A stretch of DNA of 32,000 nt from Candidatus Paracaedimonas acanthamoebae (GCA_000743035.1 CP008937.1:60001-92000); one strand, 5' to 3'. Shown: positions 2 through 15,872, counted from the stretch's first letter. Notes: a model not told the origin generated them from the letters alone. Made by a program: numbers and translations.

Positions 2-403
2 ACAGCTTTATATGTTAACCTACCTGCCATTAAAAGAGCAGAAATATTATCTGACGGCAATAAGAAGATCACGGCACAAATAATAGTTTATATTAGAATT
101 ATAACGACTTCCTACGAAGCTAAAAATATAAGAGGAGCAGATATTGCTGCAGATCTTCTTGGTTATATTTCTACTAAAAGATGGGCAGTGCCCTATGCTT
201 TTTCTGCTCAGAATGTTCAAGCTGATGATTGCTATGGTTTTAACAAAGATAATATCCAAATTATCTTAGGAGACAACAGTCATTGGACTCCAAGTATTTT
301 AGCACAGGTACAACGTCTGTATGATGTAAGTCATGGGGAAGGTGATGTATCTGTATGGATGGTAAGTTGGGAACAACCATTACAATTTAATCAAGTTGAG
401 TAA
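2..403 (+). CDS. 3' part of an unidentified protein directly upstream of the baseplate genes (5' end outside the window). It occupies the position of the tail-completion genes in P2-like clusters, but I do not recognise the family.
   Basis: Frame 2 is open from nt 2 to TAA 401-403. The ORF track shows only the part after an internal GTG at 188. Same strand as the tail genes, and the stop lies 7 nt before the gpV-like ATG. Confidence 0.45.
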   Translation, partial: TALYVNLPAIKRAEILSDGNKKITAQIIVYIRIITTSYEAKNIRGADIAADLLGYISTKRWAVPYAFSAQNVQADDCYGFNKDNIQIILGDNSHWTPSILAQVQRLYDVSHGEGDVSVWMVSWEQPLQFNQVE

Positions 404-410
404 TTAACTA

Positions 411-1019
411 ATGGATAACAATTTTTTACTTATTGAACATGATCGTATGCTTAGTAATATGGTGCGCATTGGATTAGTCGAAGAGGTAAATTATAAAAAA
501 GCTCGAGCTAAGATAAAGCTAGAGGATGATTTTGCAACATATTGGTTGCCATGGTTGACACGCAAAGCCGGTGCTTCTTATGAGTATTGGGCTTTAGAAA
601 AGGAGGAACAAGTTGTTGTTGTTTTTCCTTCAGGAGACTTAAATCAAGGAATCATCATAGGGTCTATTTGTAAAGGGGATCCTGATAATAAATTAATTCC
701 CAATTCAACTAGCTCTAAAGAAGATCAAGCTTCAAAACTACAGACTTTGCATAAGGTAGTTTATAAAGATGAGTCATCTTTTTCTTACGACTGTAATAAA
801 GACGCGCATAATTTTTTTCTTGAAATAAGAGATAATAGTAATAAAGCGGCCATAGAAATCAATGCAGATCCGCAAAAAGGAATTTCTATCAATATAAAGG
901 GTAGCGGGGAACTTAATTTTATAAGTGAGGGCGAGATAAATATTAAAAGCTCTCAAGCTATAAAAATTAAAGGTAAATCCCTGGATATTGAAGTAGATGA
1001 AGTAGTTCAAGTGAGATGA
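411..1019 (+). CDS. gpV: Baseplate central spike / baseplate assembly protein V (P2 gpV-like, Phage_base_V family)
   Basis: The N-terminal half (NMVRIGLVEEVNYKKARAKIKL..YWLPWLTRKAG..YWALEKEEQVVVVFPSGDLNQGIIIGS) follows the gpV OB-fold pattern as I remember it from P2. The C-terminus is beta-helix-like (ISINIKGSGELNFISEGEINIKSS). It is the first gene of a V-W-J-I-H series. Confidence 0.85.
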   Translation: MDNNFLLIEHDRMLSNMVRIGLVEEVNYKKARAKIKLEDDFATYWLPWLTRKAGASYEYWALEKEEQVVVVFPSGDLNQGIIIGSICKGDPDNKLIPNSTSSKEDQASKLQTLHKVVYKDESSFSYDCNKDAHNFFLEIRDNSNKAAIEINADPQKGISINIKGSGELNFISEGEINIKSSQAIKIKGKSLDIEVDEVVQVR

Positions 1020-1032
1020 GGAAAATAATATA

Positions 1033-1377
1033 ATGGCAGGGATGGATGCAGAAACAGGGAAGCTTATTGAAGGACTTGATCATTTAAAGCAATCAATTTT
1101 GGATATTCTTAAAACACCTTTAGGTTCACGTGTTATGCGTCGTGATTATGGGTCTAGAATTTTCTCAATGTTAGATCAGCCAATTAATCAGGAGCTTATT
1201 TTACAATTGCAAGCATCTGTTGCAGAAGCCTTGACTACTTATGAACCACGTTTACGTCTTTCCAGGGTTAAAGTAGACAGCCGAGGACCTGGGGAAATTT
1301 TAATAAAAATAGAAGGCTATCATGCCGTTGATGGCCAGCCCATAAATTTAAGTGAACGAATTGAAATGATGAATTAA
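1033..1377 (+). CDS. gpW: Baseplate wedge protein W (P2 gpW / T4 gp25-like)
   Basis: 114 aa. The motif ILKTPLGSRVMRRDYGS..LDQP matches the GPW_gp25 signature (GxRvmrxdyGs). Size and position match P2 gpW. Confidence 0.9.
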   Translation: MAGMDAETGKLIEGLDHLKQSILDILKTPLGSRVMRRDYGSRIFSMLDQPINQELILQLQASVAEALTTYEPRLRLSRVKVDSRGPGEILIKIEGYHAVDGQPINLSERIEMMN

Positions 1378-1414
1378 TAACTGCTGTAATCGGGCGTACA
1401 AGGGGGAGGAAGTT

Positions 1415-2278
1415 TTGGGGTTTAAAACTGATTTTGAGACACTAGACTTTGAGACTATTGTCCAAGAAATGAAGCAATCATTAATTAAAAAATGGAAAAG
1501 CATCAATGTTCATGTTGATGAACTTCTCGAAAGTGATCCTGCGGTTAAAATTATTGAGATTGCAGCATATCAAGAATTGTATGCACGTCAAAGTATTAAA
1601 GAATCAATAAAAAAAGTTTTTGTGCAAAGTGCTCAAGATAAAGATTTAGAAAATCTTGCAACTCTATTTAATCTCAAACGACTTAAGAATGAAGATGACA
1701 ATAAGTTTCGAGAAAGGATTATGTCTTCGCGCTATTTAGAGCAATCTGCAGGAACTAAAGCAGCTTATGAGCAATGTGTTCTTAGTCATTCCTATGTTCA
1801 AGATGCAAAAGCACTGTGTAATGAAGATTCAAAAATAGAAATAATTGTTTTGTTGCAAGTACATGAAGAACAATTATTCTCCACACTTGAAAAGGAGATA
1901 GGAAGGCATATTGAAGAAAGGCGTGTCATTACTGATTATGTAGTTCTAAAACCTGCGTATATCCATTCTTATCAACTTTCTGCAGAATTATACCTTCGAC
2001 CTGGCCCAGGCATTTTTGAAGTAGGACAACAAGCGAAGAGGCGTCTAATAGACTATATTAAAATAAATTATAAGCTTGGACATACAATAAGTTTAGCAGG
2101 AATTTATAATTCTCTTACCTTGCCAGGAGTATACAAAATTGAACTCAAATCACCTCTGGAAGATATTTATGCAAAAGACCATGAAGCGTCTAGATGCGAG
2201 CAAATTGATTTAAAGCTTATAACCCCTACAGGATCTATTTCATTACCTCTTTTAGGTAAGGAGGAGATCTATGCCTAA
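1415..2278 (+). CDS. gpJ: Baseplate wedge protein J (P2 gpJ / T4 gp6-like, Baseplate_J family)
   Basis: 287 aa, TTG start 5 nt after GGGGGAGGA. The segments LDFETIV.., LESDPAVKIIEIAAYQELYARQ, LENLATLFNLKRLKNEDDNKFRERI and SAELYLRPGPG..LGHTISLAGIYNSL..GVYKIEL parallel P2 gpJ along its whole length. Confidence 0.85.
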   Translation: MGFKTDFETLDFETIVQEMKQSLIKKWKSINVHVDELLESDPAVKIIEIAAYQELYARQSIKESIKKVFVQSAQDKDLENLATLFNLKRLKNEDDNKFRERIMSSRYLEQSAGTKAAYEQCVLSHSYVQDAKALCNEDSKIEIIVLLQVHEEQLFSTLEKEIGRHIEERRVITDYVVLKPAYIHSYQLSAELYLRPGPGIFEVGQQAKRRLIDYIKINYKLGHTISLAGIYNSLTLPGVYKIELKSPLEDIYAKDHEASRCEQIDLKLITPTGSISLPLLGKEEIYA

Positions 2279-3248
2279 TAATAAGATGCCTACTAGCTTT
2301 GGGTATAAGTCAATTATGTCTCCTTTGCTGATTGACTTAGCAAGCCTAGAGGTTCCTTTTTTCGTACCTTTAAGGCCTCGGAAAGATCTACTAAAAGAGT
2401 TGTCTGAGAAGATTTCCAATGAACCGATGGTTTTAAAACTGTTAGAAGTTATTGTTGAGCGTGAAGAAAGTCTTCGACAGTGGATTAATGAGATGTCTCG
2501 AGATGTTCTGTTAGCTACAGCTAAAGGAGATTATCTAGATCAAATTGTTTCTCTATATGGAGTTAAGCGTTTAACAAAAGAAGATGATGAAATTTTGCGA
2601 CAACGTACGCTTTTATCTCTTTATGGTTATGGTGCTTCAGGATCAAAAGAAAATTACTTATTCCATATTTATTCCTTAAACCAAGATAACGCTATTCAAG
2701 ATGTGAACATTCATTCTCTAGATCCTGGTAAGGTTTTAGTCACCTTATTACCGACTATAATTTCTCCAGACAAACCTGTATTTACACCTGAAAAATTAAC
2801 TGAAAAAGTGTCTTCTTACCTTAAGGTTCATGCACCCCTTACTGATAAAATTGAAGTAAAATTTGCTGAAATTTTTTCTTATGTTATTCAAGTTAATTTA
2901 GTGCTTTATAATGATGAAAATTTAGAACAAATAAGACAAGAAGTTGAAACACGATTACAAAGTTTTGCTAAGATTAATTACATATTAGGGCAATCTATTG
3001 AAACCAGTGCTTTACAGGCTGCAATCTACCATCCAGACATCAAGGCTAATAAGGTCAGAATAGAAGGATGCTTTCTCAAAGAGGGAACTAAAAAAACATA
3101 TGATATGAAAATTCAAAACCTAATTGGACTCAGTTTTAATCAAGCTCCTTATTGCAATTATCAAAAGCAACAAGAAGAAACTCCACTAGATCCTTCTCAT
3201 CCTGAACTTTATGGAATTCAAGTTTCAATTACTAAACATTTAGATTAA
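2271..3248 (+). CDS. Second Baseplate_J-like protein (paralogue of the preceding gene)
   Basis: 325 aa. ATG follows AAGGAGG and overlaps the upstream stop by 8 nt. It shares J-family blocks with the neighbour: YLDQIVSLYGVKRLTKEDDEILRQRT vs LENLATLFNLKRLKNEDDNKFRERI, and INYILGQSIETSALQAAI vs INYKLGHTISLAGIYNSL. Confidence 0.7.
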   Translation: MPNNKMPTSFGYKSIMSPLLIDLASLEVPFFVPLRPRKDLLKELSEKISNEPMVLKLLEVIVEREESLRQWINEMSRDVLLATAKGDYLDQIVSLYGVKRLTKEDDEILRQRTLLSLYGYGASGSKENYLFHIYSLNQDNAIQDVNIHSLDPGKVLVTLLPTIISPDKPVFTPEKLTEKVSSYLKVHAPLTDKIEVKFAEIFSYVIQVNLVLYNDENLEQIRQEVETRLQSFAKINYILGQSIETSALQAAIYHPDIKANKVRIEGCFLKEGTKKTYDMKIQNLIGLSFNQAPYCNYQKQQEETPLDPSHPELYGIQVSITKHLD

Positions 3249-3251
3249 AAA

Positions 3252-3887
3252 ATGACGACATTAACTCCTTTACTTCCTCCTCATGCGACACAACTTGAAA
3301 AAACCTTATGCCAAGCCACAGAACGTTTGAATGAAATTCTGTTAATACACACAACTGAAGGTAATGATTTAAAACCTTCTGTAAGAATTAATATTAATCA
3401 GTTATGGGATGTGGATCATTGTCCAGAAAAATTTCTTCCTTGGCTTGCTTGGGCTTTGGCCGTCAACGTTTGGGATGAAGGATGGTCAGAGGAAAAAAAA
3501 CGAGCGGTCATTAAAAACAGTGCTTTAGTACATAGCAAAAAAGGAACAATTTCGGCGATTAAAGAAGCCGTAAAACCCTTTGGAGTTTCAGCCCATGTGA
3601 CAGAATGGTGGGAAAAGAAAGTTCCTATAGAAAGGCGTAAACCTTACCATTTTTACATAGATATATTCGTTGATACAAATCTTTCTCAAAAAGATTTCCC
3701 TGAGATAAATGAGACCTTTATCGCAAACCTGCGACAAGTCATTGATACTGTCAAACCTTTAAGGAGTACTTACAAAATAGCAATAGGAATTACTCTTCGT
3801 CTTGAGAGTAAACTAAATATGGTTTGTCGTATGAGTGCTTTACCCCTTTTACGTTCAACATTTTTATTAGAAAAAAGAGAGCAATAA
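3252..3887 (+). CDS. gpI: Baseplate/tail protein I (P2 gpI-like, Tail_P2_I family)
   Basis: LWDVDHCPEKFLPWLAWALAVNVWDEGWSEEKKRAVIKNSALVHSKKGTISAIKEAVKPFG..VTEWWE matches the conserved core of P2 gpI. Position is after J. Confidence 0.9.
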   Translation: MTTLTPLLPPHATQLEKTLCQATERLNEILLIHTTEGNDLKPSVRININQLWDVDHCPEKFLPWLAWALAVNVWDEGWSEEKKRAVIKNSALVHSKKGTISAIKEAVKPFGVSAHVTEWWEKKVPIERRKPYHFYIDIFVDTNLSQKDFPEINETFIANLRQVIDTVKPLRSTYKIAIGITLRLESKLNMVCRMSALPLLRSTFLLEKREQ

Positions 3888-3889
3888 AT

Positions 3890-5077
3890 ATGAGTAATAT
3901 ATTTAAACCTGTCATTACAAATAAAGGCCTAGAAGTTATAAGTAAATTACAAGCAGTAAATAAACCTTGCCAGATCACGCATGTTGCTCTTGGGTCAGGT
4001 GCATCCTATATAGCAACAGGGCAAGAAAGCAGCCTAAAAGAAGAAAAACAACGCGTTCCTATATCCGATTGTCAATGGATTGAAAATGGTCAAAATGGGC
4101 AGATTCATCTAAAAGCTGTGGCAGATGATCAGCATGCTGAGCCTTATGATATTTTTGAAGTCGGATTTATTATAAAAGGGGTGAATGGAGAGCAAGTTTT
4201 ATTTGCCCTTTACACGACAGGAAATGCAACTAAGCTTGTCTATAAAAGCAAAGAAGCCGATGTTTTATTAGCGTTTGATCTCGTTTTGGGGTTATCTGAC
4301 CAAGAAATAAGATTATTGATTCCATCCACCAAATCTGGAGAGGGATTTTCCTATCCTGTTGCAACAGTCGAAAAACCAGGAATTGTTTCTCTTGCAACTG
4401 CTGAGCAAGTCAAAGATGGTAAAGACAGTAGCTCGGTTATTACCTCTGCAACACTAGCCCCCCTCTTGGAAGAAATTAAAAATCTCCAAGCAAAATTTAA
4501 TACAAGATTAGATTCATTTGGGCAAATTCCAGTTGGAACTATTATCGATTGGTGGAGACCTGAAGAGAATGAACGGTATCTTTTTCCTGTAGGGTTTGTG
4601 ATCTGCGATGGACGTATCATTGATGATTCTCAAAGCGTCTACCATGGTAAGGCAGTCCCAAATCTAATTGATAAATTTATTAGAGCTGTTCCTATAAATA
4701 GATTAGGTGAAGTGGGCGGGAAAAGCGAGTGGAATGCGCAACAAGACCCAACTCTTTTAACTGATGCGATAGGAAGCCATAGTCATAATTATAAAGATCT
4801 AAAATCTTTAACGGGTTGGGTAGTACCAATTGCTAACTATCCTAAAAAAGAAGATAAACCTTGGGCTTGTGGCGTATATAACTCGGATGGGAAGCTTGAA
4901 GATGCCATGTTTAGAACTAGAGGGAAGAATGATTCTACTGACCATAATGAAGGGCAGCATCGACATTCCCTTCCAGACCTTAATTCTGATGGAAACCATA
5001 CACATAAAATTGTTGAAGGAAAGATTGCAACGATTCCCCCTTATTTTGGTCTCTTAAAACTGATTAGAATTAAGTAA
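3890..5077 (+). CDS. gpH: Tail fibre (P2 gpH-like N-terminus; collar-like domain and HxH-rich C-terminus)
   Basis: I prefer ATG 3890 (MSNIFKPVITNKGLEVISKL..ITHVALGSG), 3 nt after the gpI stop. This resembles the conserved N-terminus of P2-type fibres. The track start at 3824 would overlap gpI by 64 nt. The C-terminal part has a collar-like segment (PVGFVICDGRII..GKAVPNLIDKFIR) and three HxH motifs. Confidence 0.8.
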   Translation: MSNIFKPVITNKGLEVISKLQAVNKPCQITHVALGSGASYIATGQESSLKEEKQRVPISDCQWIENGQNGQIHLKAVADDQHAEPYDIFEVGFIIKGVNGEQVLFALYTTGNATKLVYKSKEADVLLAFDLVLGLSDQEIRLLIPSTKSGEGFSYPVATVEKPGIVSLATAEQVKDGKDSSSVITSATLAPLLEEIKNLQAKFNTRLDSFGQIPVGTIIDWWRPEENERYLFPVGFVICDGRIIDDSQSVYHGKAVPNLIDKFIRAVPINRLGEVGGKSEWNAQQDPTLLTDAIGSHSHNYKDLKSLTGWVVPIANYPKKEDKPWACGVYNSDGKLEDAMFRTRGKNDSTDHNEGQHRHSLPDLNSDGNHTHKIVEGKIATIPPYFGLLKLIRIK

Positions 5078-5187
5078 AAAATTTAAAAATTCTATAAATA
5101 AAGAGGCAAGATATTAAAGTAAAATTAATCTTTTTATATTTAAATTAACCTATCAATATTTAACATCCTTAGGGAAGAAAGGTGATT

Positions 5188-6330
5188 ATGTCAGAAGATT
5201 TTTTACATGGAATTGAAATTCAAGAACAAGATATAGGGCCTCGTTCAATAGGACTAATAGATTCATCTGTTATTGGACTTGTGGGAACAGCAACAGGGAT
5301 TGAAAAAAATAGACCCATATTAATTAAAGGATCAAAAGATCCTCTTTTAGAAAAATTAGGAAAAGCAGGAACAATTCCAACCGCACTCGCTGGTATTTTT
5401 GATCAAACAGAAGCCCAAGTTGTTGTTGTTAATATAGGTGAAGGAACTGCAGATGATGAAGCTGGAGAAGACACGGCAGGAAATGGTGGTAAGCCAAAAC
5501 TAAAAGGGACTTCTAATTTAAAAACTGCGGCTGAGAGCCTTTTAAATGCTGAAAGTGTTGTTCACAAAACCCCCCGTATTCTTATTGCTCCAGGTTTTTC
5601 CAATAAAAAAGAAGCCATAGAAAGCTTATTATCTGTTGCTCAACGTCTTAGAAGTGTCGTGATTGCTGAGTGCCCAGAAGATGAAAATATTGATAGTTTA
5701 GGAATTGCGCATAATGATCGTCTTTATTTTATTCATCCAAGTTTCATTGTGGGAGAAAATAAACCTGAACCAGCTTCAGCACGTATAGCAGGGGTGATTG
5801 TAAGGTCAGATAATGAGCGTGGTTTTTGGTTTAGCCCTTCAAATCAACCGATCATGGGTATTAGAGGAACTAAAACACCGATTCCTTTTGCTCTTGGAGA
5901 TAAAAATGCCAAAGCAAACGAATTGAATGCGAAAGGTATTGCAACGGTTATTCATCAAAATGGGTATCGCCTATGGGGAAATCGTAGCTATTCTGACAAC
6001 TCAAAATGGCAATTTCTGAGTGTAAGACGAACAGCAGATGCAATTAACGATTCACTTCTTCAAGCACACTTTTGGGCGATTGATCGGAATATCACAAAAA
6101 CTTACGTCACAGATGTTATTGAAGGCGTAAATGTTTTCTTAAGAAGCTTAAAAGCAAAAGGAGCGATCCTCGGCGGTAAGTGCTGGGCCAATCCCGAAGA
6201 TAATACTCCTGATAAAATCCAATCAGGTCAAATTGCTTTTAATTTTGACTTTACACCCCCTTATCCGGCTGAGCGCATTACATTTAAAAGCGCAATTGTT
6301 GATAACTACCTTAAGGAACTCTTCTCATGA
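5188..6330 (+). CDS. FI: Contractile tail sheath protein (P2 gpFI-like)
   Basis: MSEDFLHGIEIQE..IGLVGTA, PRILIAPGF, GFWFSPSNQ, YRLWGNRSYSD..WQFLSVRRTAD and FNFDFTPPYPAERITF track P2 FI along its length. ATG 5188 follows GGGAAGAAAGG; GTG 5182 is an alternative start. Confidence 0.93.
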   Translation: MSEDFLHGIEIQEQDIGPRSIGLIDSSVIGLVGTATGIEKNRPILIKGSKDPLLEKLGKAGTIPTALAGIFDQTEAQVVVVNIGEGTADDEAGEDTAGNGGKPKLKGTSNLKTAAESLLNAESVVHKTPRILIAPGFSNKKEAIESLLSVAQRLRSVVIAECPEDENIDSLGIAHNDRLYFIHPSFIVGENKPEPASARIAGVIVRSDNERGFWFSPSNQPIMGIRGTKTPIPFALGDKNAKANELNAKGIATVIHQNGYRLWGNRSYSDNSKWQFLSVRRTADAINDSLLQAHFWAIDRNITKTYVTDVIEGVNVFLRSLKAKGAILGGKCWANPEDNTPDKIQSGQIAFNFDFTPPYPAERITFKSAIVDNYLKELFS

Positions 6331-6827
6331 TACCCAAGACACTCAAAAACTTTAATCTTTACATTGACGGCCGCGGTTATGCAGGTCGTGTTGAAGAAAT
6401 CAATTTACCAAAGTTATCTATTAAAACTGAAGAGTATCGTGCTGGCGGGATGGACATGCCTGTGGAAATTGATATGGGAATGCAAAAACTCGAAAGCAGT
6501 ATCACGTTGAGTGAATATGACGATGAAGTTCTAAAGCTTTTTGGAACGCATGATAATAAGCCTAATGTTAATTTTAGAGGCGCTATGGAGGATGGCTCTG
6601 GCAAAGTAACACCAGTTCTCATCGCTCTTAATGGCAAATGGCGCGACCTTGATTTTGGGAATTGGAGAAGCGGTGATAAAGCCACTTTAAAGATTGAAGT
6701 CATAGCTCATTATTATCGTCTTGAGATTGATGGCAAGGAATTAATTGAAATTGATATTGAGAACATGGTCCGAAAAATTAATGGGGAAGACCAATTAAAA
6801 CCTATTCGGGATGCCCTTGGGATCTAA
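6327..6827 (+). CDS. FII: Tail tube protein (P2 gpFII-like)
   Basis: LKNFNLYIDGRGYAGRVEEINLPKLSIKTEEYRAGGM and YYRLEIDGKELIEIDIENMVRKINGEDQL closely follow P2 FII. An ATGA start/stop overlap with the sheath gene suggests translational coupling. Confidence 0.93.
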   Translation: MIPKTLKNFNLYIDGRGYAGRVEEINLPKLSIKTEEYRAGGMDMPVEIDMGMQKLESSITLSEYDDEVLKLFGTHDNKPNVNFRGAMEDGSGKVTPVLIALNGKWRDLDFGNWRSGDKATLKIEVIAHYYRLEIDGKELIEIDIENMVRKINGEDQLKPIRDALGI

Positions 6828-6899
6828 TAAATTAAGTAAATAATGAACCTAAAAGGAGTAGGGCTTAACCCTATACCTTTCTTTTGAAAAGGAAAGATA

Positions 6900-7142
6900 A
6901 TGAGTACACAAATTGATCTTAAATACCCTATCATGGCAGAAGGCCGGGAAATAACAAGCTTGACGTTACGCCGTCCTACGGTTCGGGATCGACTAATAGC
7001 AGAAAGAACGAATGGGACAAACTTTGAAAAAGAAATTCGACTTGTTGCAGCTCTATGTGATCTTGCTCCAAATATTATTGAATCCTTAGATATGGCGGAT
7101 TATAGCGAGCTTCAAGATGCCTTATCTGATTTTTTATCCTAA
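6900..7142 (+). CDS. gpE: Tail assembly chaperone E (P2 gpE-like)
   Basis: 80 aa. L.YP....G.EI.SLTLRRPTVRD resembles the gpE family (tail assembly chaperone E/41/14). It sits between the tube gene and the tape-measure slot and ends in a slippery T-run. Confidence 0.85.
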   Translation: MSTQIDLKYPIMAEGREITSLTLRRPTVRDRLIAERTNGTNFEKEIRLVAALCDLAPNIIESLDMADYSELQDALSDFLS

Positions 7143-7282
7143 GTCCTGATGATCTTTATAAAGCGGTTATAGAGCTTAATTCTTATACTCAATGGGGATT
7201 AAATGAATTGTTGGGACTTGAGGAACAAGAAATTCTTAAGTGGAATCAGGTTGCTAAAAAGGCCTATGGGAAGAGCTATTAA
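6900..7282 (+). CDS. Tail assembly chaperone E+E' (predicted programmed -1 frameshift product)
   Basis: After a -1 slip on T_TTT_TTA (7130-7136), the -1 frame stays open for 48 codons (ILSPDDLYKAVIELNSYTQWGLNELLGLEEQEILKWNQVAKKAYGKSY) to TAA 7280-7282. The extension length and the W-containing helical motif resemble the P2 E' extension. The region is otherwise an unexplained 160-nt gap. Confidence 0.7.
7130..7136 (+). other. Slippery heptamer T_TTT_TTA for -1 ribosomal frameshifting (gpE to gpE+E')
   Basis: X_XXY_YYZ heptamer in the gpE zero frame (gaT TTT TTA tcc taa), 4 nt before the gpE stop. P2-like phages use a T-run at the equivalent place. Confidence 0.7.
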
Positions 7283-7303
7283 AAATAGTTGAGGGAAGAA
7301 TAA

Positions 7304-9739
7304 GTGCCTAGAAGTAAAGGGAAAAATCAGAAAAAATCTTCAACTAATAAGACACGTAATGGTGGTATTAAAAAAAACAGGATACAAGAAAATAAAATAT
7401 TAAATCCATTAACAAAAAAACAAAAAAACAACTATGTTTTTTATTTAGAGAGATTTAAAGAAGCGCTTAAAAATGATGCTTTTAGAGAAAGTTACGAAGA
7501 GAATTTAAAGGGTAAATTTTATAAAGAAATGGGATGTCCTGAATTTCAGGAGTTAAAAAAATGTTCAGAAAATCATTCAAAATGGGATTTGGGGTGGCCA
7601 CTTGAGCCTCTTGCTAATCTATTTAATAATATAGCTAAAGATATAAATAATGCTGCGACCAACGTGCAGAAGAAAAAAGAGAAAGAAGAATTAAATAAAA
7701 AAATTCAAGAAGCCGAAGCGGAAGAGCGTAAAAAAGTTCGTGAAGAGGCCCAAGCAAGGGGAACATTTGGCTCGCTTCAAAATAAATATGAAAAGAGAGC
7801 TGATATTACAGAAAGTCAATATTTAGATCTAACAGCTGCTAAATTAAACTTAAACGAAACACAGATGACCTTATCTTTTAAACGAAATGATAGGGTTGAG
7901 AAAACTTGGCATTATAAACATTTTCATAAAAATTTACAGAATGTAAAGCGCCTAAGGACAGAAGTAGGAAAACCAGCATTAGGTAAACAAGAAAGTTTTG
8001 AATTTGTAAGAGGAGAAGGGGCTAAAACTACTTCTTTAGGGCATGTAAATATTTTGAGCATTGAAGATGTTTACAAGACAAGAGAGGCTTTGAAGGCGAT
8101 ATATCTGCAAAAAAACAAAAATTATATTACAACTTCTATTACTCTCCCTCAGGATATACTAAAGAAGGGTAAATTTCGGTATGAATTTGCGGAAGGAACA
8201 GATATAGGCCTTTATCCTACTCATATTGTAAGTGAAGAAAAAGATCTTCAGCTTAAAATTCAGCGTACTAGTCAAGCGCCCGCGTATAAAGAGCTAGCTA
8301 AGATGCTTGATTCAGGGTTAGGTGAGTTGATAAAGAAAGTACTGAGTGAAGATGGAGAAAAAGTTTGGGGAGACACTAAGACAGATCTCACTGAATCTGT
8401 ATCAGCATTAAAGAATGATGACCAAAAAGAAACAGAACTAAAAAAACTTTTAACCAGAGGCATATTAAGAGAAGCAAAACGGCTTACGCGCTTCAAAAAA
8501 CCTAAAAATGAATGGTTAATTTCCAACAATGATACTCTTGATGCTCTTGTCGAATTAGCGATGCTTGCAGAACTAGCGGAATACCATCGTTCAGGGGGGC
8601 ATATTTTAGCCAGGCTGGCCTTGAAAATAGGAGGAGATTCTTTTCAAGAAGTTTACACAGGAAGCCATCCCTTATTTATTGGAGCTAAAGCTGAAAAGGC
8701 TGGAGCTGATGAAGGAGGCGCACAGGCCATGAAAAGAATCTTTGAAAATACTGCCAATGAGCCCGATCAAAAAAATTTATTTAAACTTGTAAGCAGCCTT
8801 CTAATAAATCGATATAACAAAATGACAACTACGGAAGGTCGTGGCATTTATGCTAGAAATTTAGAGGAGTTTGAAGACTGGATGCAACAAGCTCTAAGAA
8901 AAAGCTTAGGGGACGTTCCTGTAAAAAATTCACTCTTAGAAACTCCCTTAATTGAAAATTTGTGGTTAAGTTCTCGGGCAGCATTTCTTTTCCTGAATGA
9001 GAACTATAATGAAACTTTTTTTTGGAAAGATATTTTTTTTAAGAAATGGTTGCCAGAAAATAGTAGAATTCTAGATGAACCACAACAAATTAAACATAAA
9101 AAAGTTATTGATTTTGAAGAAAAAAGTATGGCCTTAGAAGGGAGCCAAGCAAGACTTTTAGAGGCAATTAAAATTGTAGGAAAGCTTAGAGCTGTTAGTA
9201 AAATTTTTAGCAGTAACAATTATTTAACGGTTGATAGCGAACTTCCTTCGGACTATTTTCAGGATCATTTTTTTCCGTGGCTTGATGGCACCATAAACTT
9301 CAACTCTAGATTTGTAACCCAGGAATATCTAAATTTAAGAAGGAAAGGTATGGACAAAGATGCAGCGGTTAAAACTATAGTTTATTATGAGAAAGGAAGA
9401 AAACTTGATTTTCAAGAGGAAGCTTTGGAGAAATATGTAGATACTATCGAAAATGAAAGTGAATCAGGAAAAACAACAAATACATCGAAAAGACCTCTAG
9501 ACCCTGACAGCGAACATGAACCACCAAATAAAAGATTCAAACAAGATAAAATGTTTGAGGATGAACGTGCTACAATACAAGCTAACACCGAATTTGAAAA
9601 GGAAGGAAAAATTTCTGGGGTGGAGGCTGATGATTTAAGTAGTTATGTAGAGTTAAGAGCAAATGGAGTAGATAAAGAAGTGGCTATTCTGTTCATACAG
9701 CAAAATAAATCTTCTTCTTCTTTTAGTGATCAATTTTAG
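7304..9739 (+). CDS. Protein in the tape-measure (gpT) slot. A tape-measure role is inferred from position and length only; the sequence is atypical (Lys/Glu-rich, NLS-like motifs).
   Basis: 811-codon ORF with GTG start 6 nt after GAGGGAAG, lying between E/E' and gpU. Its length is close to P2 gpT as I recall it. I recognise no tape-measure sequence signature. Confidence 0.6.
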   Translation: MPRSKGKNQKKSSTNKTRNGGIKKNRIQENKILNPLTKKQKNNYVFYLERFKEALKNDAFRESYEENLKGKFYKEMGCPEFQELKKCSENHSKWDLGWPLEPLANLFNNIAKDINNAATNVQKKKEKEELNKKIQEAEAEERKKVREEAQARGTFGSLQNKYEKRADITESQYLDLTAAKLNLNETQMTLSFKRNDRVEKTWHYKHFHKNLQNVKRLRTEVGKPALGKQESFEFVRGEGAKTTSLGHVNILSIEDVYKTREALKAIYLQKNKNYITTSITLPQDILKKGKFRYEFAEGTDIGLYPTHIVSEEKDLQLKIQRTSQAPAYKELAKMLDSGLGELIKKVLSEDGEKVWGDTKTDLTESVSALKNDDQKETELKKLLTRGILREAKRLTRFKKPKNEWLISNNDTLDALVELAMLAELAEYHRSGGHILARLALKIGGDSFQEVYTGSHPLFIGAKAEKAGADEGGAQAMKRIFENTANEPDQKNLFKLVSSLLINRYNKMTTTEGRGIYARNLEEFEDWMQQALRKSLGDVPVKNSLLETPLIENLWLSSRAAFLFLNENYNETFFWKDIFFKKWLPENSRILDEPQQIKHKKVIDFEEKSMALEGSQARLLEAIKIVGKLRAVSKIFSSNNYLTVDSELPSDYFQDHFFPWLDGTINFNSRFVTQEYLNLRRKGMDKDAAVKTIVYYEKGRKLDFQEEALEKYVDTIENESESGKTTNTSKRPLDPDSEHEPPNKRFKQDKMFEDERATIQANTEFEKEGKISGVEADDLSSYVELRANGVDKEVAILFIQQNKSSSSFSDQF

Positions 9740-9758
9740 AAGAGAAAGGGAATAACAC

Positions 9759-10160
9759 ATGAGTGTAATGTTAATGTTAGGACCTTATATGTTTTCGGTG
9801 TCAACGGCGGCTTATCAAGATTTAAAGCGGTCAACGGAATACAATTGGACAGAGAAAAAAACCATTAAGCCCGCAAAGGTTAATGCCTCAAAATCATTAC
9901 TTAGGTATAGCGGACTTGGAAGAGAAACAGTTTCCTTAAACGGGATCATTTATCCTGCTTATAAAGGGGGGATTTACCAACTTCCATTAATGCGGGAAAC
10001 CGCAGGTTTAGGACTTCCTCTTCCTTTAATTGGGTTGAGTGGATTTATTTTGGGAAGATGGATTATTGAAAGTATAGATGAAAATCAATCCACATTTCAT
10101 CAATATGGTATTCCTCGAAAAATAGATTTCCATTTAAGTCTTCGACGATATTATGAATAA
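9759..10160 (+). CDS. gpU: Tail protein U (P2 gpU-like)
   Basis: MLMLGPYMFSV..AYQDLKRS, ETVSLNGIIYPAY.GG and GIPRKIDFHLSLRRY match the gpU family pattern (..GTPRKIDF.LSL.. in P2). Confidence 0.9.
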   Translation: MSVMLMLGPYMFSVSTAAYQDLKRSTEYNWTEKKTIKPAKVNASKSLLRYSGLGRETVSLNGIIYPAYKGGIYQLPLMRETAGLGLPLPLIGLSGFILGRWIIESIDENQSTFHQYGIPRKIDFHLSLRRYYE

Positions 10161-10171
10161 GGCAAAATATC

Positions 10172-10501
10172 ATGGCAAGAATTTATATAACCAAGCAAGG
10201 GGATATGCTGGATTGGATCTGCTGGCGGTACTATAGTTACCTCCATCGTATACAAAACCTGGCTGTGGGAGATTATGCGCATATTCCTCATCATGATCTT
10301 ATGGATCAAGAGCCTCTTTTCCCCGTTTCTGGAGGAGCAAAACAGTTCCAAGAAGGTTTTTTAAGAGGCGCAGTGGAGGCTGTTTTGGAAGCTAACCCTG
10401 GACTTGTAGACCAAGGCGTTATTCTCCCTGCAGGTATTAAGGTTACCTTACCTAATTTTGATCCCACTATTATTAAAAATGTTCCGCGTTTGTGGGATTG
10501 A
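10172..10501 (+). CDS. gpX: Tail protein X (P2 gpX-like, LysM-like Phage_tail_X) with an internal insertion
   Basis: QGDMLDWICWRYY ... VEAVLEANPGL....VILPAGIKVTLP are the two halves of the gpX signature. They are separated by about 40 extra residues. Confidence 0.85.
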   Translation: MARIYITKQGDMLDWICWRYYSYLHRIQNLAVGDYAHIPHHDLMDQEPLFPVSGGAKQFQEGFLRGAVEAVLEANPGLVDQGVILPAGIKVTLPNFDPTIIKNVPRLWD

Positions 10502-10503
10502 TT

Positions 10504-11508
10504 ATGGCACTAGCAATTAATTATAAAATCCAGATTGAAAATAAAGAACTTACGTCTTATTTTCATGAACGTTTTTTGTCTCTTACAATTAAAGATTGGG
10601 GGGGAAAACAAAGTGATGAAGCCATTCTTATCTTTGATGATCGACCTTATCCCACTCCTGATACATCGCTCAGTGTTCCTGGATGCGGTGCTTCCTTAGA
10701 TGTTTTTTTAGGACACAGAAATGAGCTCATCGGCATGGGTCAATATATTATCGATGATCGTGTTTTAATTGGACAACCAGACGGCCAATTTTTGAAAATT
10801 TATGCAAAAGGCCTTAATGTTGTCTCTTCTTTCTTAAGCCTTAAAACTCGGTCTTGGGTGAGCCAAGAAGGGGGGCCACCCATGACCTTAGGAACAATCA
10901 TTTCACAAATTGCACAAGAACATTCAATGATTCCCAAGGTGAGCGAAAAACTTAGCCAAATTTCTATTATTCAAGAAAATCAGACACGAGAATCAGATAG
11001 TAACTTCCTTATGCGGTTGGCTAAAAAATATGGAGCATTATTTAAACCTCGTGGAAAGAATCTTGTTTTTGCATCTTTTACAGAAAGCATGAGTATTGAA
11101 GGAAAAAAATTTCCCACATCACTGTTAGGTCCTGCCAATGTTTATAATTGGCGTGTTACTTTTGCTGAACGGAACAAATTTACTCAAGTTCAAGCCTTTT
11201 GGTATGATTATCAAGAAAATAAATTAAAAATGATTAAGGTGGGAACGGAAGGAAAAGTTTTCCAACTTCGTCATCAATATTCTTGCGAAAATGAGACTTT
11301 ATATGCTGCAGAATCCTACTTAAAAAAATTAAGTATGCAGACTGAACATCTTGAATGTCGTATCCCAGGTAATCCTGAACTCCTTGCAGAACACCAAGTA
11401 TCTTTGGCCGGGTTTAAAGAAATAGTGAATGGAAGGTGGACTTTAAGCTCAGTGACTCACAAGGTTAATAGTAAAGATTATGTAACAACTTTTCAAGCTT
11501 ATAGATAA
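10504..11508 (+). CDS. gpD: Late control protein D / baseplate hub (P2 gpD-like, Phage_GPD)
   Basis: LSLTIKDWGGKQSDEAILIFDD, TLGTIISQIAQEH, QTRESDSNFLMRLAKKYGALF and WTLSSVTHKVN parallel P2 gpD. ATG 10504 lies 3 nt after the gpX stop. GTG 10492 (the track start) is an alternative. Confidence 0.9.
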   Translation: MALAINYKIQIENKELTSYFHERFLSLTIKDWGGKQSDEAILIFDDRPYPTPDTSLSVPGCGASLDVFLGHRNELIGMGQYIIDDRVLIGQPDGQFLKIYAKGLNVVSSFLSLKTRSWVSQEGGPPMTLGTIISQIAQEHSMIPKVSEKLSQISIIQENQTRESDSNFLMRLAKKYGALFKPRGKNLVFASFTESMSIEGKKFPTSLLGPANVYNWRVTFAERNKFTQVQAFWYDYQENKLKMIKVGTEGKVFQLRHQYSCENETLYAAESYLKKLSMQTEHLECRIPGNPELLAEHQVSLAGFKEIVNGRWTLSSVTHKVNSKDYVTTFQAYR

Positions 11509-11526
11509 TAGTTAAAGGAGAAAGAG

Positions 11527-11910
11527 ATGAATCAAGGAGAGTCCGTTGCAACTCAACAAGATGTTAAGATGACACTGGCAACAGCTGCCCAAGTGCCATC
11601 AGGAGCTATGCCTAGTTCAGGAGGTCAATGGCAAGCCGGTACAGTGAGCTGTAAATTCCATCAAAAAATTAAAGTAGATGGACAGCCAGTTATTTATGAA
11701 GCTCAATGTATATTCACATATAGCGGAGGAAAGACAGCCGATGGAATCGCAGATTTTCCAACTCCATTTCTGGATACCGTCGTATTAAAGCCAAAGATAG
11801 GAAAATTAAAAGAAAAAAATATTGATGTCTTATTAAATGGCGATGCTTACACAAGTCCATATGGAAATACGTTAGAAATAAAGTCTCACAGGAAGCTTAA
11901 ATTAAACTAG
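11527..11910 (+). CDS. Small hypothetical protein, last gene of the tail operon (function unknown; weak PAAR-like flavour only)
   Basis: 127-aa ORF with ATG 6 nt after AAGGAGAAAGAG, 18 nt after the gpD stop, same strand. Predicted beta-rich. The segments KIKVDGQPVIYEAQC and IDVLLNGDAY are faintly reminiscent of PAAR repeats. Confidence 0.5.
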   Translation: MNQGESVATQQDVKMTLATAAQVPSGAMPSSGGQWQAGTVSCKFHQKIKVDGQPVIYEAQCIFTYSGGKTADGIADFPTPFLDTVVLKPKIGKLKEKNIDVLLNGDAYTSPYGNTLEIKSHRKLKLN

Positions 11911-11971
11911 ATAAAATTCATTTTCGCCTCGCAAAAATAAGCCTGTTCCTTAGAAATTTGATATATATATG

Positions 11972-13129
11972 TTATTCATCTAGAAATCTAGCAAGTTCTT
12001 CTAACTGTGTATCGTACTGTTCAATAACTGCCAATGCGTATGCTTCGAGAGCAGCTATATTTTCAGGGCTTCCATTGTCCATGTCTGCATGATGTTGCTG
12101 AAGAGTTGGCTGAAATCGATAATATTTTCTTCTAAATTTTGTTTTATGAACATCGTAAAAAAATAAATCTTTCATTTGCTGATGAACCGTGTCACTCCCT
12201 GCATTGAAAACAACATCTACAATATCAGCTGCCCAATCAAGCTTCCCTCCTTTGCCAAATTGTGAGCTATCAAAAGAATCAATAGTTGCTTCATCATAAA
12301 GAGATCCTGTACCTAAAGACAAAATTAAGAAATCATTATCATGGCCATAAATTTCAAATGCATGAAGACATGCTGAAAGGGTAGGATTATTAGCAGCAAC
12401 GCCTCCATCAATTAGGGTACGAATTTCTGTTTCATTAAGATTCTTGATTATTGCTGGTGTAAAATATGTAGGAGCTGCAGAAGTTGCGCGAGCAACGTCT
12501 TTCATATAATAATTTTTATATGGATCATTTTGAGAATCATACTTTTTAAAAAAGACTGTTTGATGAGTATTAACATCATAAGCAGGAATGATGACATTTG
12601 TGAGCGAGTCTTTAATTTGTGTATCACCTAGATAAAGATAAAGAAATTTTTCTAAATTTTCTTGTAAGTATTTCTCATCTAGCCATCCATTAAGGCTAAA
12701 TATGAAATGAAAGATTGATTGATCAAAAATATTTTCGCCTAAAGTTTTATAAAGCTGTGCAATAAAATTTGCACGATATCGGGGATAGCCAGAAGCGTTA
12801 GGCTTACTGAGCATTAAAGCAATAATTCCGCCTGTTGAAGTTCCTGCCATGATATCAAAACATTCACTTAAGTGTTTTTTTTTCTTAAGGCGTGCTTCTA
12901 AATTTTCCAGAATTTTGGCTGGAATTATTCCCCGAACACCACCACCATCAATAGCCAGTATCTTAATTACCTTTTTATTAGGTTTTGAAGGAGAGCTATT
13001 AAATAAAGCTGCTGAAGAATTGAAAGAAATACAAACAGACAATAGAATATTTGAGATGTAACTATTTATTTTTGAAAAATTAAACATTTTTATTATTATA
13101 GTCCTAATAGAAATTTTTATATGGAACAT
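11972..13129 (-). CDS. Patatin-like phospholipase with a signal-peptide-like N-terminus
   Basis: Oxyanion-hole motif DGGGVRG, nucleophile elbow GTSTGG (GxSxG) and catalytic Asp motif DGGVAANNP appear in the correct order. Internal ATG 13087 (MFNFSKINSYISNILLSVCISFNSSAA) is a likely true start. Confidence 0.9.
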   Translation of the reverse strand: MFHIKISIRTIIIKMFNFSKINSYISNILLSVCISFNSSAALFNSSPSKPNKKVIKILAIDGGGVRGIIPAKILENLEARLKKKKHLSECFDIMAGTSTGGIIALMLSKPNASGYPRYRANFIAQLYKTLGENIFDQSIFHFIFSLNGWLDEKYLQENLEKFLYLYLGDTQIKDSLTNVIIPAYDVNTHQTVFFKKYDSQNDPYKNYYMKDVARATSAAPTYFTPAIIKNLNETEIRTLIDGGVAANNPTLSACLHAFEIYGHDNDFLILSLGTGSLYDEATIDSFDSSQFGKGGKLDWAADIVDVVFNAGSDTVHQQMKDLFFYDVHKTKFRRKYYRFQPTLQQHHADMDNGSPENIAALEAYALAVIEQYDTQLEELARFLDE

Positions 13130-13189
13130 GTTTTATCATAATAAAATTTATCTGCCACCAACAATTTAAGTAATTCAGCTTAAGAAAAG

Positions 13190-13474
13190 TCATTTTACGG
13201 AGATTTTCATGGAAAAGAGGTGGACCAAAGACAGAATATTTTTTGCAAATAATTGCTTTAATATTTTGTTTAGAAATTTAGTTATTTCTGGGTTTACCAG
13301 GCTGGCTCCTTGGGGACCATTCACCCAATAGCTTGCTAGTAATCTCTCAATTTGTCGTGTACTAATATGAAGAATTTCTGCAGCTTGAACTTGACTTAGA
13401 CGTTTTTCACTTACTTTCTTAATAATTTCAAGGCGATGAAGTTCTTTCTCACTCATAATGACCAGTTTCTCCAT
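13190..13474 (-). pseudogene. Degenerate N-terminal fragment of a transposase (HTH domain, ISNCY/IS1202-like)
   Basis: MSEKELHRLEIIKKVSEKRLSQVQAAEILHISTRQIERLL is the typical N-terminal HTH of such transposases. After about 55 aa the homology continues only in another frame (KAIICKKYSVFGPPLFHENL), so it is frameshifted. No catalytic domain follows. Confidence 0.6.
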
Positions 13475-13659
13475 CTTAAAGCTCCTTGATAAATAGCAGA
13501 TGAGCTACCAACCATACCTTAAGCGGACATTTCTATTTTGCTTAAACTGGACATTATAACTTTGCTGCTACAGTTGTTAAACGCATAATGTTAATTATGG
13601 AAAATGGTATTAATCAAGTGATTGATTTAAAAACAATTCTTATGAAATTAATTTTTATT

Positions 13660-14769
13660 TTATTCTTTCAGGCTATGCTGTTTGAAATCTTTAATTTCTC
13701 TCTTAAGTTCAGCTTCTAATTCAGCTTCTGTCGGTAGATGAAATTGATATGAACTTGCAAATATCTGTTTAGTTTTCTCTCCAAGGGTATATCTAACCAT
13801 AGCATCGCTCTTGTCTGTACATAACACAAGACCAATAGTTGGATTGTCATTTTCTGTTTTGATCTCTTGATCGAAATAATTTACGTAGAATTGTATTTGA
13901 CCCAAATCAGCATGTGTAAGCCGTTTTGTCTTGATATCTATAATGACGTAACATTTTAAAATAACATGATAAAAAACAAGATCCGCATAAAAATGCTCGT
14001 TATCTAGTGTCAAGCGCTTCTGCCTTGCAATAAAGGCAAATCCTTTGCCTAATTCTAATAGAAATCGTTGCAGATTAGTGATAATTGCTTCTTCAAGTTT
14101 AGATTCAACATATTGATGCTCTTCAGGTAAACCTAAAAACTCTAATATTAAAGGTTCTTTAATAGCATCTTCAGGTTTAATTATTTCTTGACCCTTATAT
14201 GAAAGAGCCAAAAGCCCTTCTTTATCTTTGCTTTTAGCCAAACGATCATAAAGCAAACTTCCTATTTGCCTTTGTAATTCACGAGCTGACCAATTGTTCC
14301 TTGAAGCTTCAATCTCATAAAAGGCTCGCGCGTTAAGTCTTTTAACCCTCATCAATTCTCGATAATGGCTCCATCCTAAATTCGAAGTAAATTCAGGAGC
14401 CTGAGATTCGCTACACACTGTGTAGTGAATTGGATATTCGCTTTTAAGTAAGTCATATTCTAAATAAAATTGCCTCATATTGCGCACATTAGATATTGAA
14501 AAACCTCGACCATAATTTTCACAAAGCTTACGAGAAATGTTAGCAATTAGTTCTTGACCATATTTAGCTCTATTAGAGCCTTGTTGCTCAGCATCAATGA
14601 TGTCTTTGCCTATCTTCCAATAGGTTTTAAGCATTTCTCTATCAATAGTTGTAACGACATTAAAGCGTGCTTTATCTATGTAAGTCGATATACGCTGATA
14701 CAAATCATCTAAGTGAGATTTATCTTCACTTAAAACTGATTCACGAGATGGGATTAATTTATTATTCAT
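13660..14769 (-). CDS. PD-(D/E)xK nuclease-domain protein, DUF1016 / YhcG family
   Basis: YWKIGKDII..EQQGSNRAKYGQELIANISRKL...GRGFSISNVRNMRQFYLEY and LEFLGL.....ESKLE.AII.NLQRFLLELGKGFAFIARQKRL....HFYADLVFYH..L.CYVIIDIK are hallmark DUF1016 blocks. Confidence 0.85.
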   Translation of the reverse strand: MNNKLIPSRESVLSEDKSHLDDLYQRISTYIDKARFNVVTTIDREMLKTYWKIGKDIIDAEQQGSNRAKYGQELIANISRKLCENYGRGFSISNVRNMRQFYLEYDLLKSEYPIHYTVCSESQAPEFTSNLGWSHYRELMRVKRLNARAFYEIEASRNNWSARELQRQIGSLLYDRLAKSKDKEGLLALSYKGQEIIKPEDAIKEPLILEFLGLPEEHQYVESKLEEAIITNLQRFLLELGKGFAFIARQKRLTLDNEHFYADLVFYHVILKCYVIIDIKTKRLTHADLGQIQFYVNYFDQEIKTENDNPTIGLVLCTDKSDAMVRYTLGEKTKQIFASSYQFHLPTEAELEAELKREIKDFKQHSLKE

Positions 14770-14994
14770 AAAATAACTGACACTTTAGTCTTATTGATAA
14801 ATATAAAGTCTTCCTTAAGAATTAACATAAAAATGAAGCATTTTAGATTTTTTTTAATTTTCTCAGTTATAACAGTTTTTCATTTAAGAAATGCCTTATC
14901 TTCTGTTTATTAAAAGCCTTTCAAAATAGGAAAAATCCACCTTGCTTCACAACATTTTCTCTTGATATGGTAGCCCAAATCTTACAAAGGAGAG

Positions 14995-15699: not shown

Positions 15700-15716
15700 T
15701 AGGTTAGACCTTAAAA

Positions 15717-15751
15717 GGTTCTGACACTGTATTAAAGATCAAGGATTATTT
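15717..15751 (-). repeat. Solo copy of the 35-bp 3'-end motif of the IS110-family element seen at 21903-21937
   Basis: The reverse complement (aaataatccttgatctttaatacagtgtcagaacc) differs at 3 of 35 positions from 21903-21937. It lies just downstream of the MarC-family gene. Confidence 0.6.
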
Positions 15752-15872
15752 GCTCAAAAACTAGTGTCCTGTATTAAATTCGCTCAAAATTGATTAAAAA
15801 TTATATTAAATTGCCATATGCCTTTTTGGCAGTTATAAGTAGAAATTATTTCATTCAAAATAGGTAATAGCA

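Follow-up and report, generated by a model that had tools for sequence, protein, structure and literature searches.

A 32,000-nucleotide stretch of DNA from Candidatus Paracaedimonas acanthamoebae (GCA_000743035.1, CP008937.1:60001-92000; hereafter the window) opens with a co-directional gene series at positions 2 to 11,910. The protein families that this series encodes identify it as an operon for a contractile tail of phage origin, in the structural class of P2 and R-type pyocins. We estimate a probability of about 0.5 that this element is tail-only and R-type tailocin-like. Its sheath protein is 100% identical to IM40_09570, which the public annotation places on a 148,131-bp plasmid of Candidatus Paracaedimonas acanthamoebae (formerly assigned to Caedibacter). 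The tail terminator, or collar, is IM40_09535, and a nearby patatin-like phospholipase is IM40_09610. The organism belongs to the Holosporales, lives in the cytoplasm of Acanthamoeba, contains five plasmids, and is the sister of the Paramecium "killer" symbiont Caedimonas (PMC11909080). The tail operon is therefore plasmid-borne, and its host is an obligate intracellular alphaproteobacterium. The literature searched, papers on this organism included, does not describe the locus.

The open reading frames (ORFs) of the window were assigned to families by profile comparison with Pfam, PHROG, NCBIfam, and PDB (Table 1). The genes for the terminator, V, W, J, J', I, H, FI, FII, E/E', T, U, X, and D are all intact. 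The ORF listing and the hidden Markov model (HMM) scans bore out the initial annotation of this DNA, which had described a co-directional series V-W-J-J'-I-H followed by FI-FII-E/E'-T-U-X-D, with an ATGA overlap between the sheath and tube genes and an 8-nt overlap between the two J genes. The 104-bp gap it placed between H and FI is present if FI is read from GTG 5182. The most likely start of FI is ATG 5188, which gives a protein of 380 residues, the same as the database protein that matches at 100%. For gpH, alignment with contig L001 of a metagenomic relative (JGI sample 3300050314, contigs L001 and L019) makes ATG 3890 the most likely start rather than TTG 3824. Within the chaperone gene, the slippery heptamer T TTT TTA at 7130-7136 is followed by a 48-codon extension in the -1 frame to 7282, which corresponds to E'. 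The X protein has 109 residues here and in L019 versus 69 in phage WO of Wolbachia and in the metagenomic phage contig L002, and the Phage_tail_X profile matches it in two stretches.

The terminator and the sheath of the predicted particle are of pyocin and phage type. The collar gene starts about 114 nt 5' of the window, and its product belongs to a small protein family that was recovered when 1.8 billion representative proteins were searched by profile. The top PDB match of the family profile is the R2 pyocin "Collar PA0615" (E 1.3e-3), and the two proteins are co-linear over the conserved motifs W..L and W.V.W.Q.LR.G. Comparison by hhalign connects the collar with the Mu-Gp37-like gene of L002 (probability 96%) and with the gene directly 5' of V in WOVitA1 (95.7%). 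An AlphaFold (AF2) model computed from 17 sequences (predicted local distance difference test 86, predicted template modeling score 0.84) matches a siphophage terminator, the pyocin collar (6u5f_A; TM 0.62/0.63), and the terminators of T5, lambda, and Mu. The sheath finds its top PDB match in the R2 pyocin sheath PA0622 over the full length (E 3.6e-72), while the Afp2/3 and Pvc2-4 sheaths match in one domain only, with E values of 1e-7 to 1e-12 (about 1e-10). Together with the family matches of V to D, the collar assignment means that the locus is predicted to encode each of the proteins found in an R2 pyocin particle. In four other proteins (P0125, P0133, P0135, and P0139), the collar domain of the P0121 family forms the N-terminal ~170 residues of a ~600-residue chain with Kelch repeats or a Laminin_G_3 lectin domain at the C-terminus; these may be terminators with a binding or decoration domain.

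The R2 pyocin genes of Pseudomonas aeruginosa occupy PA0615-PA0628, and the locus reproduces their structural genes and order one for one as collar, V, W, J, I, fibre, sheath, tube, E, T, U, X, and D, with X between U and D and with related sheath (PA0622) and collar (PA0615) proteins. The locus differs in having two J genes instead of one and no fibre chaperone equivalent to PA0621/gpG. It also differs in lacking, within the window, a holin, an endolysin, a spanin, and regulators of the PrtN/PrtR type, with a patatin gene in the place of the downstream lysin. It thus contains the structural set of an R-type tailocin, with T assigned by position and without gpG, but not, within the window, the accompanying lysis and regulatory genes. 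Agreement with P2 extends to the V-W-J-I-H and FI-FII-E-E'-T-U-D families, to the -1 frameshift that gives E', and to the size of T, which is close to that of the P2 tape measure (~815 residues). P2 itself has X elsewhere than between U and D and carries its tail-completion genes R and S ahead of V. The locus, in contrast, has a Mu-Gp37/PA0615-type terminator before V and X inserted between U and D; it also lacks G and ogr, and J is duplicated. With these deviations, it conforms to a P2-type tail operon.

The J paralogues share 26% identity (BLASTP E 6e-18), and both map to the single J gene of L002, WOVitA1, L023, L026, and L030, so that none of these five comparators contains two. The tandem pair is a lineage-specific trait. 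One may speculate that J and J' fill two non-equivalent J positions in the trimer of the baseplate wedge.

A third comparison concerns phage WO, which shares the tail lineage (tube 57%, W 50%, and sheath 48% identical), a terminator directly before V, and a U-X-D end with a patatin from the same PHROG family in the next 0.5-2 kb; it also shares an intracellular-symbiont host and eukaryote-like genes nearby. In WOVitA1, a PAAR gene lies between V and W. Since only 13 nt separate the end of V (1019) from the start of W (1033), the locus has no such gene there, and the HMM scans gave no match to the PAAR family anywhere in the window. Unlike WO, the locus also shows no ankyrin family and no contiguous eukaryotic association module, and no large serine recombinase was found in the window. 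Its patatin gene is convergent with the tail operon and encodes an N-terminus resembling a signal peptide; no holin-like ORF lies next to it. Of the criteria for the proposed Symbioviridae (PMC9203015), the PAAR gene and the contiguous ankyrin-rich module are absent, and the tail-adjacent patatin, a Wovirus trait, is present. According to the same work, non-Wolbachia WO-like variants have no patatin except that of Candidatus Mesenet longicola, and Paracaedimonas is not among the listed hosts (PMC9203015). Overall, the tail proteins of the window show about the same distance to WO as to L002 (30-57%), and the best sheath matches among cultured phages are only 48-49% identical. The metagenomic phage contigs L002-L004 reach 53% sheath identity and contain the connector genes Gp36, S, and Gp37 5' of V.

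These relatives also qualify two arguments of the initial annotation. X does lie between U and D, but this order is not specific to tailocins because it recurs in L002 and WOVitA1. Similarly, no phage functions were found after D up to 32 kb, but this does not discriminate, as D is near the end of the phage-like region in L002-L004, where U-X-D is followed by one methyltransferase gene and then by a purine-biosynthesis gene (SAICAR synthase). WOVitA1, whose sequenced virion genome from Wolbachia includes terminase, portal, and capsid genes, likewise closes its tail module with U-X-D. Both the order and the ending are therefore normal for phages of this tail lineage.

We estimated the ratio of nonsynonymous to synonymous substitution rates (dN/dS) by the Nei-Gojobori method against the JGI relative at dS of about 0.5-1.3. 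This relative is ~80% identical to the window; its individual proteins reach 69-93%, except T at about 40% (37-43%). With dN/dS between 0.05 and 0.39 (Table 1), the tail genes are, on this measure, maintained by purifying selection, as the initial annotation had proposed from the contrast between uninterrupted tail genes and broken insertion sequences. The E' extension in the -1 frame is constrained too (dN/dS 0.066), and the slippery heptamer is the same in L001. The spacer between H and FI shows 81% mean column identity to L001, while synonymous sites of the flanking genes differ at about 50%. This excess of conservation suggests that the region is a regulatory element and a candidate promoter. 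Scans of the window for sigma-70 promoters and terminators returned sites no commoner than in shuffled sequence. Since purifying selection and a preserved frameshift would be expected alike for an active phage and for a domesticated tail, they argue only against a dead remnant.

Table 1. Features of the window, with dN/dS against the JGI relative where estimated (U against L019).
Feature	Position	Strand	dN/dS	Family match or remark
Tail terminator / collar, C-terminal 133 of 171 aa	1-403 (ORF 2-403)	+		IM40_09535; P0121 100%
gpV baseplate spike	411-1019	+		PF04717 Phage_base_V E 6e-12; TIGR01644 phage_P2_V; phrog_9992
gpW / gp25-like sheath initiator	1033-1377	+		PF04965 GPW_gp25, E 1e-18
gpJ baseplate wedge, paralogue 1	1415-2278	+		PF04865 Baseplate_J; phrog_6
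gpJ' baseplate wedge, paralogue 2	2271-3248	+		PF04865 Baseplate_J; 8-nt overlap with J
gpI baseplate wedge	3252-3887	+	0.19	PF09684 Tail_P2_I, E 3e-39
gpH tail fibre, 395 aa	3890-5077	+	0.21	PF12571, N-terminal tail-collar fibre domain; many tail-fibre PHROGs
H-FI intergenic region, AT-rich, conserved	5078-5187	+		Candidate internal promoter or regulatory site
gpFI tail sheath, 380 aa	5188-6330	+	0.11	IM40_09570; P0001 100%; Pfam sheath domains
gpFII tail tube	6327-6827	+	0.045	PF04985 Phage_tube, E 4e-57; 92% identical to L001
gpE / gpE' tail assembly chaperones	6900-7142 / extension to 7282	+	0.084 (E)	PF10109 Phage_TAC_7; -1 frameshift
T, putative tape measure, 811 aa	7304-9739	+	0.39	Position and size only
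gpU	9759-10160	+	0.067	PF06995 Phage_P2_GpU, E 2e-27
gpX, LysM-like tail protein X, 109 aa	10172-10501	+	0.074	PF05489 Phage_tail_X, E 4e-16
gpD baseplate hub	10492-11508	+	0.096	PF05954 Phage_GPD; phrog_52 E 8e-76
orf127, conserved, last in operon	11527-11910	+	0.22	No family match
Patatin-like phospholipase IM40_09610	11972-13129	-	0.12	PF01734 E 1e-27; phrog_25573 E 4e-61; convergent with tail operon
F-box + Sel1-repeat protein, 670 aa	22076-24088	-		Effector-like
Kinase-like protein, 491 aa, hydrophobic N-terminus	27248-28723	-		Weak EcKL/APH matches
LuxR/GerE helix-turn-helix + NB-ARC STAND NTPase + TPR_10/TPR_12 protein	29123 to beyond 32000	+		ORF runs off window end

Whether the element is tail-only depends on what precedes the collar, and here the window itself begins inside the module, at the gene for the protein that forms the head-proximal end of the tail in phages. 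Among the relatives, L005 (collar 56% identical, N-terminus of V 81%) contains an intact IS110 and a second insertion sequence (IS) fragment 5' of the collar. In L020 and L021 (Logan SRR19577258 and SRR21942387; collar 52%, patatin 82%), the 400 bp 5' of the collar contain no ORF of at least 50 residues. L005 and L020 have a leader of about 100-150 bp in common before the collar start, from which the collar appears to open a transcription unit. In L002 and WOVitA1, unlike in L005 and L020, the upstream gene overlaps the terminator gene. On this comparison, the relatives favor a collar that opens the operon with no connector or head genes adjoining it. At the end of the L020 contig, about 370 bp 5' of the collar start, lies a 27-nt sequence that resembles the 3' end of a tRNA (GGAGTTCGAATCTTCTCGGGCGCGCCA), with a T-loop (GTTCGAATC) followed by the acceptor strand and CCA; neither ARAGORN nor Rfam confirmed it as a tRNA. 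The initial annotation had suggested a comparison of synteny with related genomes, and the outcome is twofold: the tail genes are conserved in the JGI relative, and in L020 (3167-4435) and L021 the V-to-D block of about 11 kb is deleted. The deletion fuses codons 1-44 of V in frame to codons 43-127 of orf127 and leaves the collar and the convergent patatin gene in place. This V::orf127 fusion marks the collar and orf127 as the genes that bound the module.

The leading alternative, which we consider possible but less probable, is that the operon belongs to a temperate phage, intact or recently so, and forms its tail half. This phage, either a P2/Mu hybrid or a WO-like myovirus, would be integrated in the plasmid with its connector, head, and recombinase genes upstream of the window, and the patatin gene would mark the end of its late region. 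The nearest characterized relatives are all phages or prophages, L002 with its connectors and WOVitA1 with a full head set. A prophage end with a related patatin beside xis/int does exist, in contig L022 (described below). Families of capsid, portal, terminase, integrase, holin, and endolysin were not found at positions 11.5-32 kb of the window. Against the phage alternative stand the lack of a connector gene abutting the terminator gene in L005 and L020, the failure to detect an integrase, a recombinase, or repeats resembling attachment sites over the 20 kb downstream of the tail, and the finding that no IMG/VR provirus matched V or the collar.

At its 3' end, the operon continues 18 nt after D with orf127, which gave no match in Pfam, PHROG, NCBIfam, or PDB. 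This protein has no transmembrane segment and is thus not holin-like; it has only two cysteines and is therefore not Ogr-like, since the Ogr-type zinc finger has four. The patatin gene lies 464 bp beyond D. Its product contains intact GGGxRG, GTSTG, and DGG motifs and a hydrophobic, signal-peptide-like N-terminus with a likely start at M15 (~13087). The N-terminus is kept in the homologues P0147-P0149 (371-379 residues) but absent from P0146 (NCBI, 331 residues) and from the WO patatin. This conservation indicates that the public annotation probably truncates the patatin gene.

The initial annotation had seen one small ORF and then non-phage genes after D. The small ORF is orf127, but the patatin that follows it is, by its conserved position, probably part of the tail element and not a mere neighboring effector. 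The layout of D, orf127, and convergent patatin is the same in the window and in L019, where orf127 is 68% identical at the same position, and it persists around the deletion in L020/L021, with the C-terminal part of orf127 surviving in L020. Among 50,697 phage records, matches to the patatin were confined to those of Wolbachia phage WO (38-39%, E ~1e-55) and to two records of uncultured phages. All eight IMG/VR loci with this patatin family have the gene 0.9-2 kb after gpD. In addition, contig L022 (ENA ERZ27280210, 2463-3729) encodes a 52%-identical signal-peptide patatin, the 5' end of which is overlapped by a holin-like ORF of 58 residues with two transmembrane segments. The gene order of this contig (tail protein, holin-like ORF, patatin, xis/int, RecT/YqaJ) marks it as a non-Wolbachia prophage with the patatin in lysis-cassette position at the prophage end. 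No holin-like or other small transmembrane ORF was found beside the patatin of the window. By position and predicted export, a signal-peptide patatin in the place of a lysis gene is a lineage-specific trait of this element, and it is the only candidate for a release function in the window. If exported, the patatin might just as well act on the host as an effector. Two ideas about the gene were rejected. It is not a specific orthologue of the WO patatin, which is 38% identical versus at least 42% for each of the best 120 database matches. Nor is the family always tail-linked, given the homologue in contig L017.

The assembly of the particle can be envisaged as follows. The hub and spike proteins (D, V, U, and X) and the wedges (W, J, J', I, and H) would nucleate the polymerization of tube and sheath, as in P2 and R2. 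The tape measure would set a length of about that of the P2 tail, or ~120 nm by the usual tape-measure rule of thumb. The terminator would cap the tail, as the collar of a tail-only particle or as the docking face for a head. In a tail-only element, the phage-type fibre would aim the particle at other bacteria in the same amoeba, and the patatin may help it exit through membranes, as proposed for WO, or may instead be a conversion gene of the element. A "lytic cassette" with patatin has been proposed for WO, and islands of only tail and lysis genes in Wolbachia and Orientia have been suggested to be phage-derived bacteriocins (PMC9203015). A bolder and rather unlikely extension is that endosymbionts of amoebae and protists akin to the "killer" Caedimonas have a single conserved functional unit made up of the tail operon, orf127, and the exported patatin, namely a headless contractile particle that is released through, or armed by, a phospholipase and not a peptidoglycan endolysin.

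Several observations weigh against the tail-only proposal or its link to the patatin. No gene for a gpG-like fibre chaperone follows H, and T matched nothing in Pfam, PHROG, NCBIfam, or PDB, so that homology to known tape measures was not detected. A canonical lysis cassette, spanins, a PrtN/PrtR-type regulator, and a promoter were not found in the window. Head genes could lie 5' of the window start or elsewhere on the plasmid, and the IS insertion in L005 or decay in L020 could secondarily have split off or removed such genes. The deletion in L020/L021 indicates that at least one lineage can do without the tail. As for the patatin, its closest homologue on a long contig, 79% identical and in L017 (GCA_006365035.1, VFQO010000038.1, a 176-kb contig) lies in a relaxase/integrase island without tail genes. 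In this island (4645-20187), a MobA/MobL relaxase and an integrase are on one side of the patatin, and three large proteins (667, 778, and 999 residues) without an assigned function and a second integrase are on the other. From this gene content, the patatin also travels in a non-phage mobile island. The WO patatins (38%) are no closer to that of the window than more than 100 other bacterial patatins are.

Some of these points also bear on the possibility, which we regard as improbable, that the operon is what remains of a prophage, no longer functional but not yet decayed, and lies beside unrelated effector genes, the patatin among them. The region is riddled with IS remnants, a close relative lost the whole V-D block by a single deletion, the closest patatin homologue on a long contig is not tail-linked, and regulator and lysis genes were not detected in the window. 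However, none of the fifteen genes is broken and the programmed frameshift is preserved; at dS of about 1, the comparison of two lineages puts dN/dS at 0.05-0.2 for most genes, and the H-FI region is conserved beyond synonymous sites.

The initial annotation had also envisaged a device aimed at a eukaryotic membrane. A contractile injection system, extracellular (eCIS) or intracellular such as a subtype iv type VI secretion system (T6SS-iv), that acts on amoeba membranes and delivers the patatin and the F-box/Sel1 protein is very improbable, even though its bearer lives obligately in amoebae and genes for patatin, F-box/Sel1, and NB-ARC/TPR proteins are present in the window. Contractile sheath-tube-baseplate machines like the one predicted here also include Afp, PVC, and the T6SS-iv of Amoebophilus asiaticus. 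A. asiaticus, also an amoeba symbiont, offers a precedent: its contractile device, a subject of Bock et al. in 2017, is reportedly used on host membranes. However, the sheath of the locus is a single protein of pyocin type over its full length, with a distant and partial similarity to the sheaths of Afp and Pvc. The operon includes no AAA+ ATPase gene and no sheath paralogues, no other eCIS-specific protein was detected, and nothing pointed to the loading of cargo. The fibre belongs to the phage tail-collar type. The patatin has its own signal-peptide-like N-terminus and has its gene on the other strand, and the F-box/Sel1 gene lies 10 kb from the tail, beyond genes for MarC, a YhcG nuclease, and IS remnants. 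With a pyocin/phage-type sheath and terminator and no eCIS component, a eukaryote-directed injector is unsupported, and the locus falls outside the eCIS and T6SS-iv classes, of which Afp-type sheath paralogues, an AAA+ ATPase, a large gp7-like baseplate protein, and linked cargo are characteristic.

The remainder of the window agrees with the initial view of a genome rich in eukaryote-like genes, which are represented here by the patatin, F-box/Sel1, and NB-ARC/TPR genes. The 126-nt direct repeats at 31521-31980 are the TPR units of the last of these. The G+C content is 0.32-0.40 throughout, with no compositional step where the tail module ends. No tRNA or other Rfam family was found in the window, and megablast queries with the tail region and the IS region gave no nucleotide match in the PLSDB plasmid collection. 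The statement that every IS in the window is truncated or frameshifted holds for IstA, of which only a 175-residue remnant (19730-20257) is left, and for the IS110 copy, a 191-residue C-terminal fragment versus 325 residues for the intact copy in L005. It does not hold for the IS21 partner gene istB, which is full length (20254-21036). A 35-nt inverted repeat (91%) at 15717-15751 and 21903-21937 resembles the sequence 3' of the intact IS110 in L005 and encloses 6.1 kb with orf517, a 637-residue metallo-β-lactamase-fold (ComEC-like) protein, the IS21 remnant, and the IS110 fragment. This segment may be composite or inverted. At the 5' edge of the istA remnant, the two arms of a perfect 38-nt inverted repeat lie 124 nt apart, the first (19669-19706) just 5' of the remnant and the second (19831-19868) within it.

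Headless contractile tails are well known in free-living bacteria, but for obligate intracellular symbionts they are so far no more than a proposal, made for islands in Wolbachia and Orientia. An intact tail set under selection on the plasmid of a Holosporales amoeba symbiont extends this proposed picture to a third lineage. The main value of the locus is that it provides an independent instance of the tail-patatin arrangement and a candidate tailocin or phage in a group without genetic tools. Because the arrangement of a tail followed by a patatin now occurs outside Wolbachia, the proposal that the WO patatin functions in lysis or exit becomes testable by comparison. If the element is a prophage, it would join a short list of candidate active phages in Holosporales and might serve as a genetic tool for them. 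If instead a headless particle and the patatin do form one unit, the locus would offer independent, non-Wolbachia evidence for the patatin-based exit route proposed for WO, and it would suggest a part for phage-tail particles in symbiont-mediated killing or competition inside protists.

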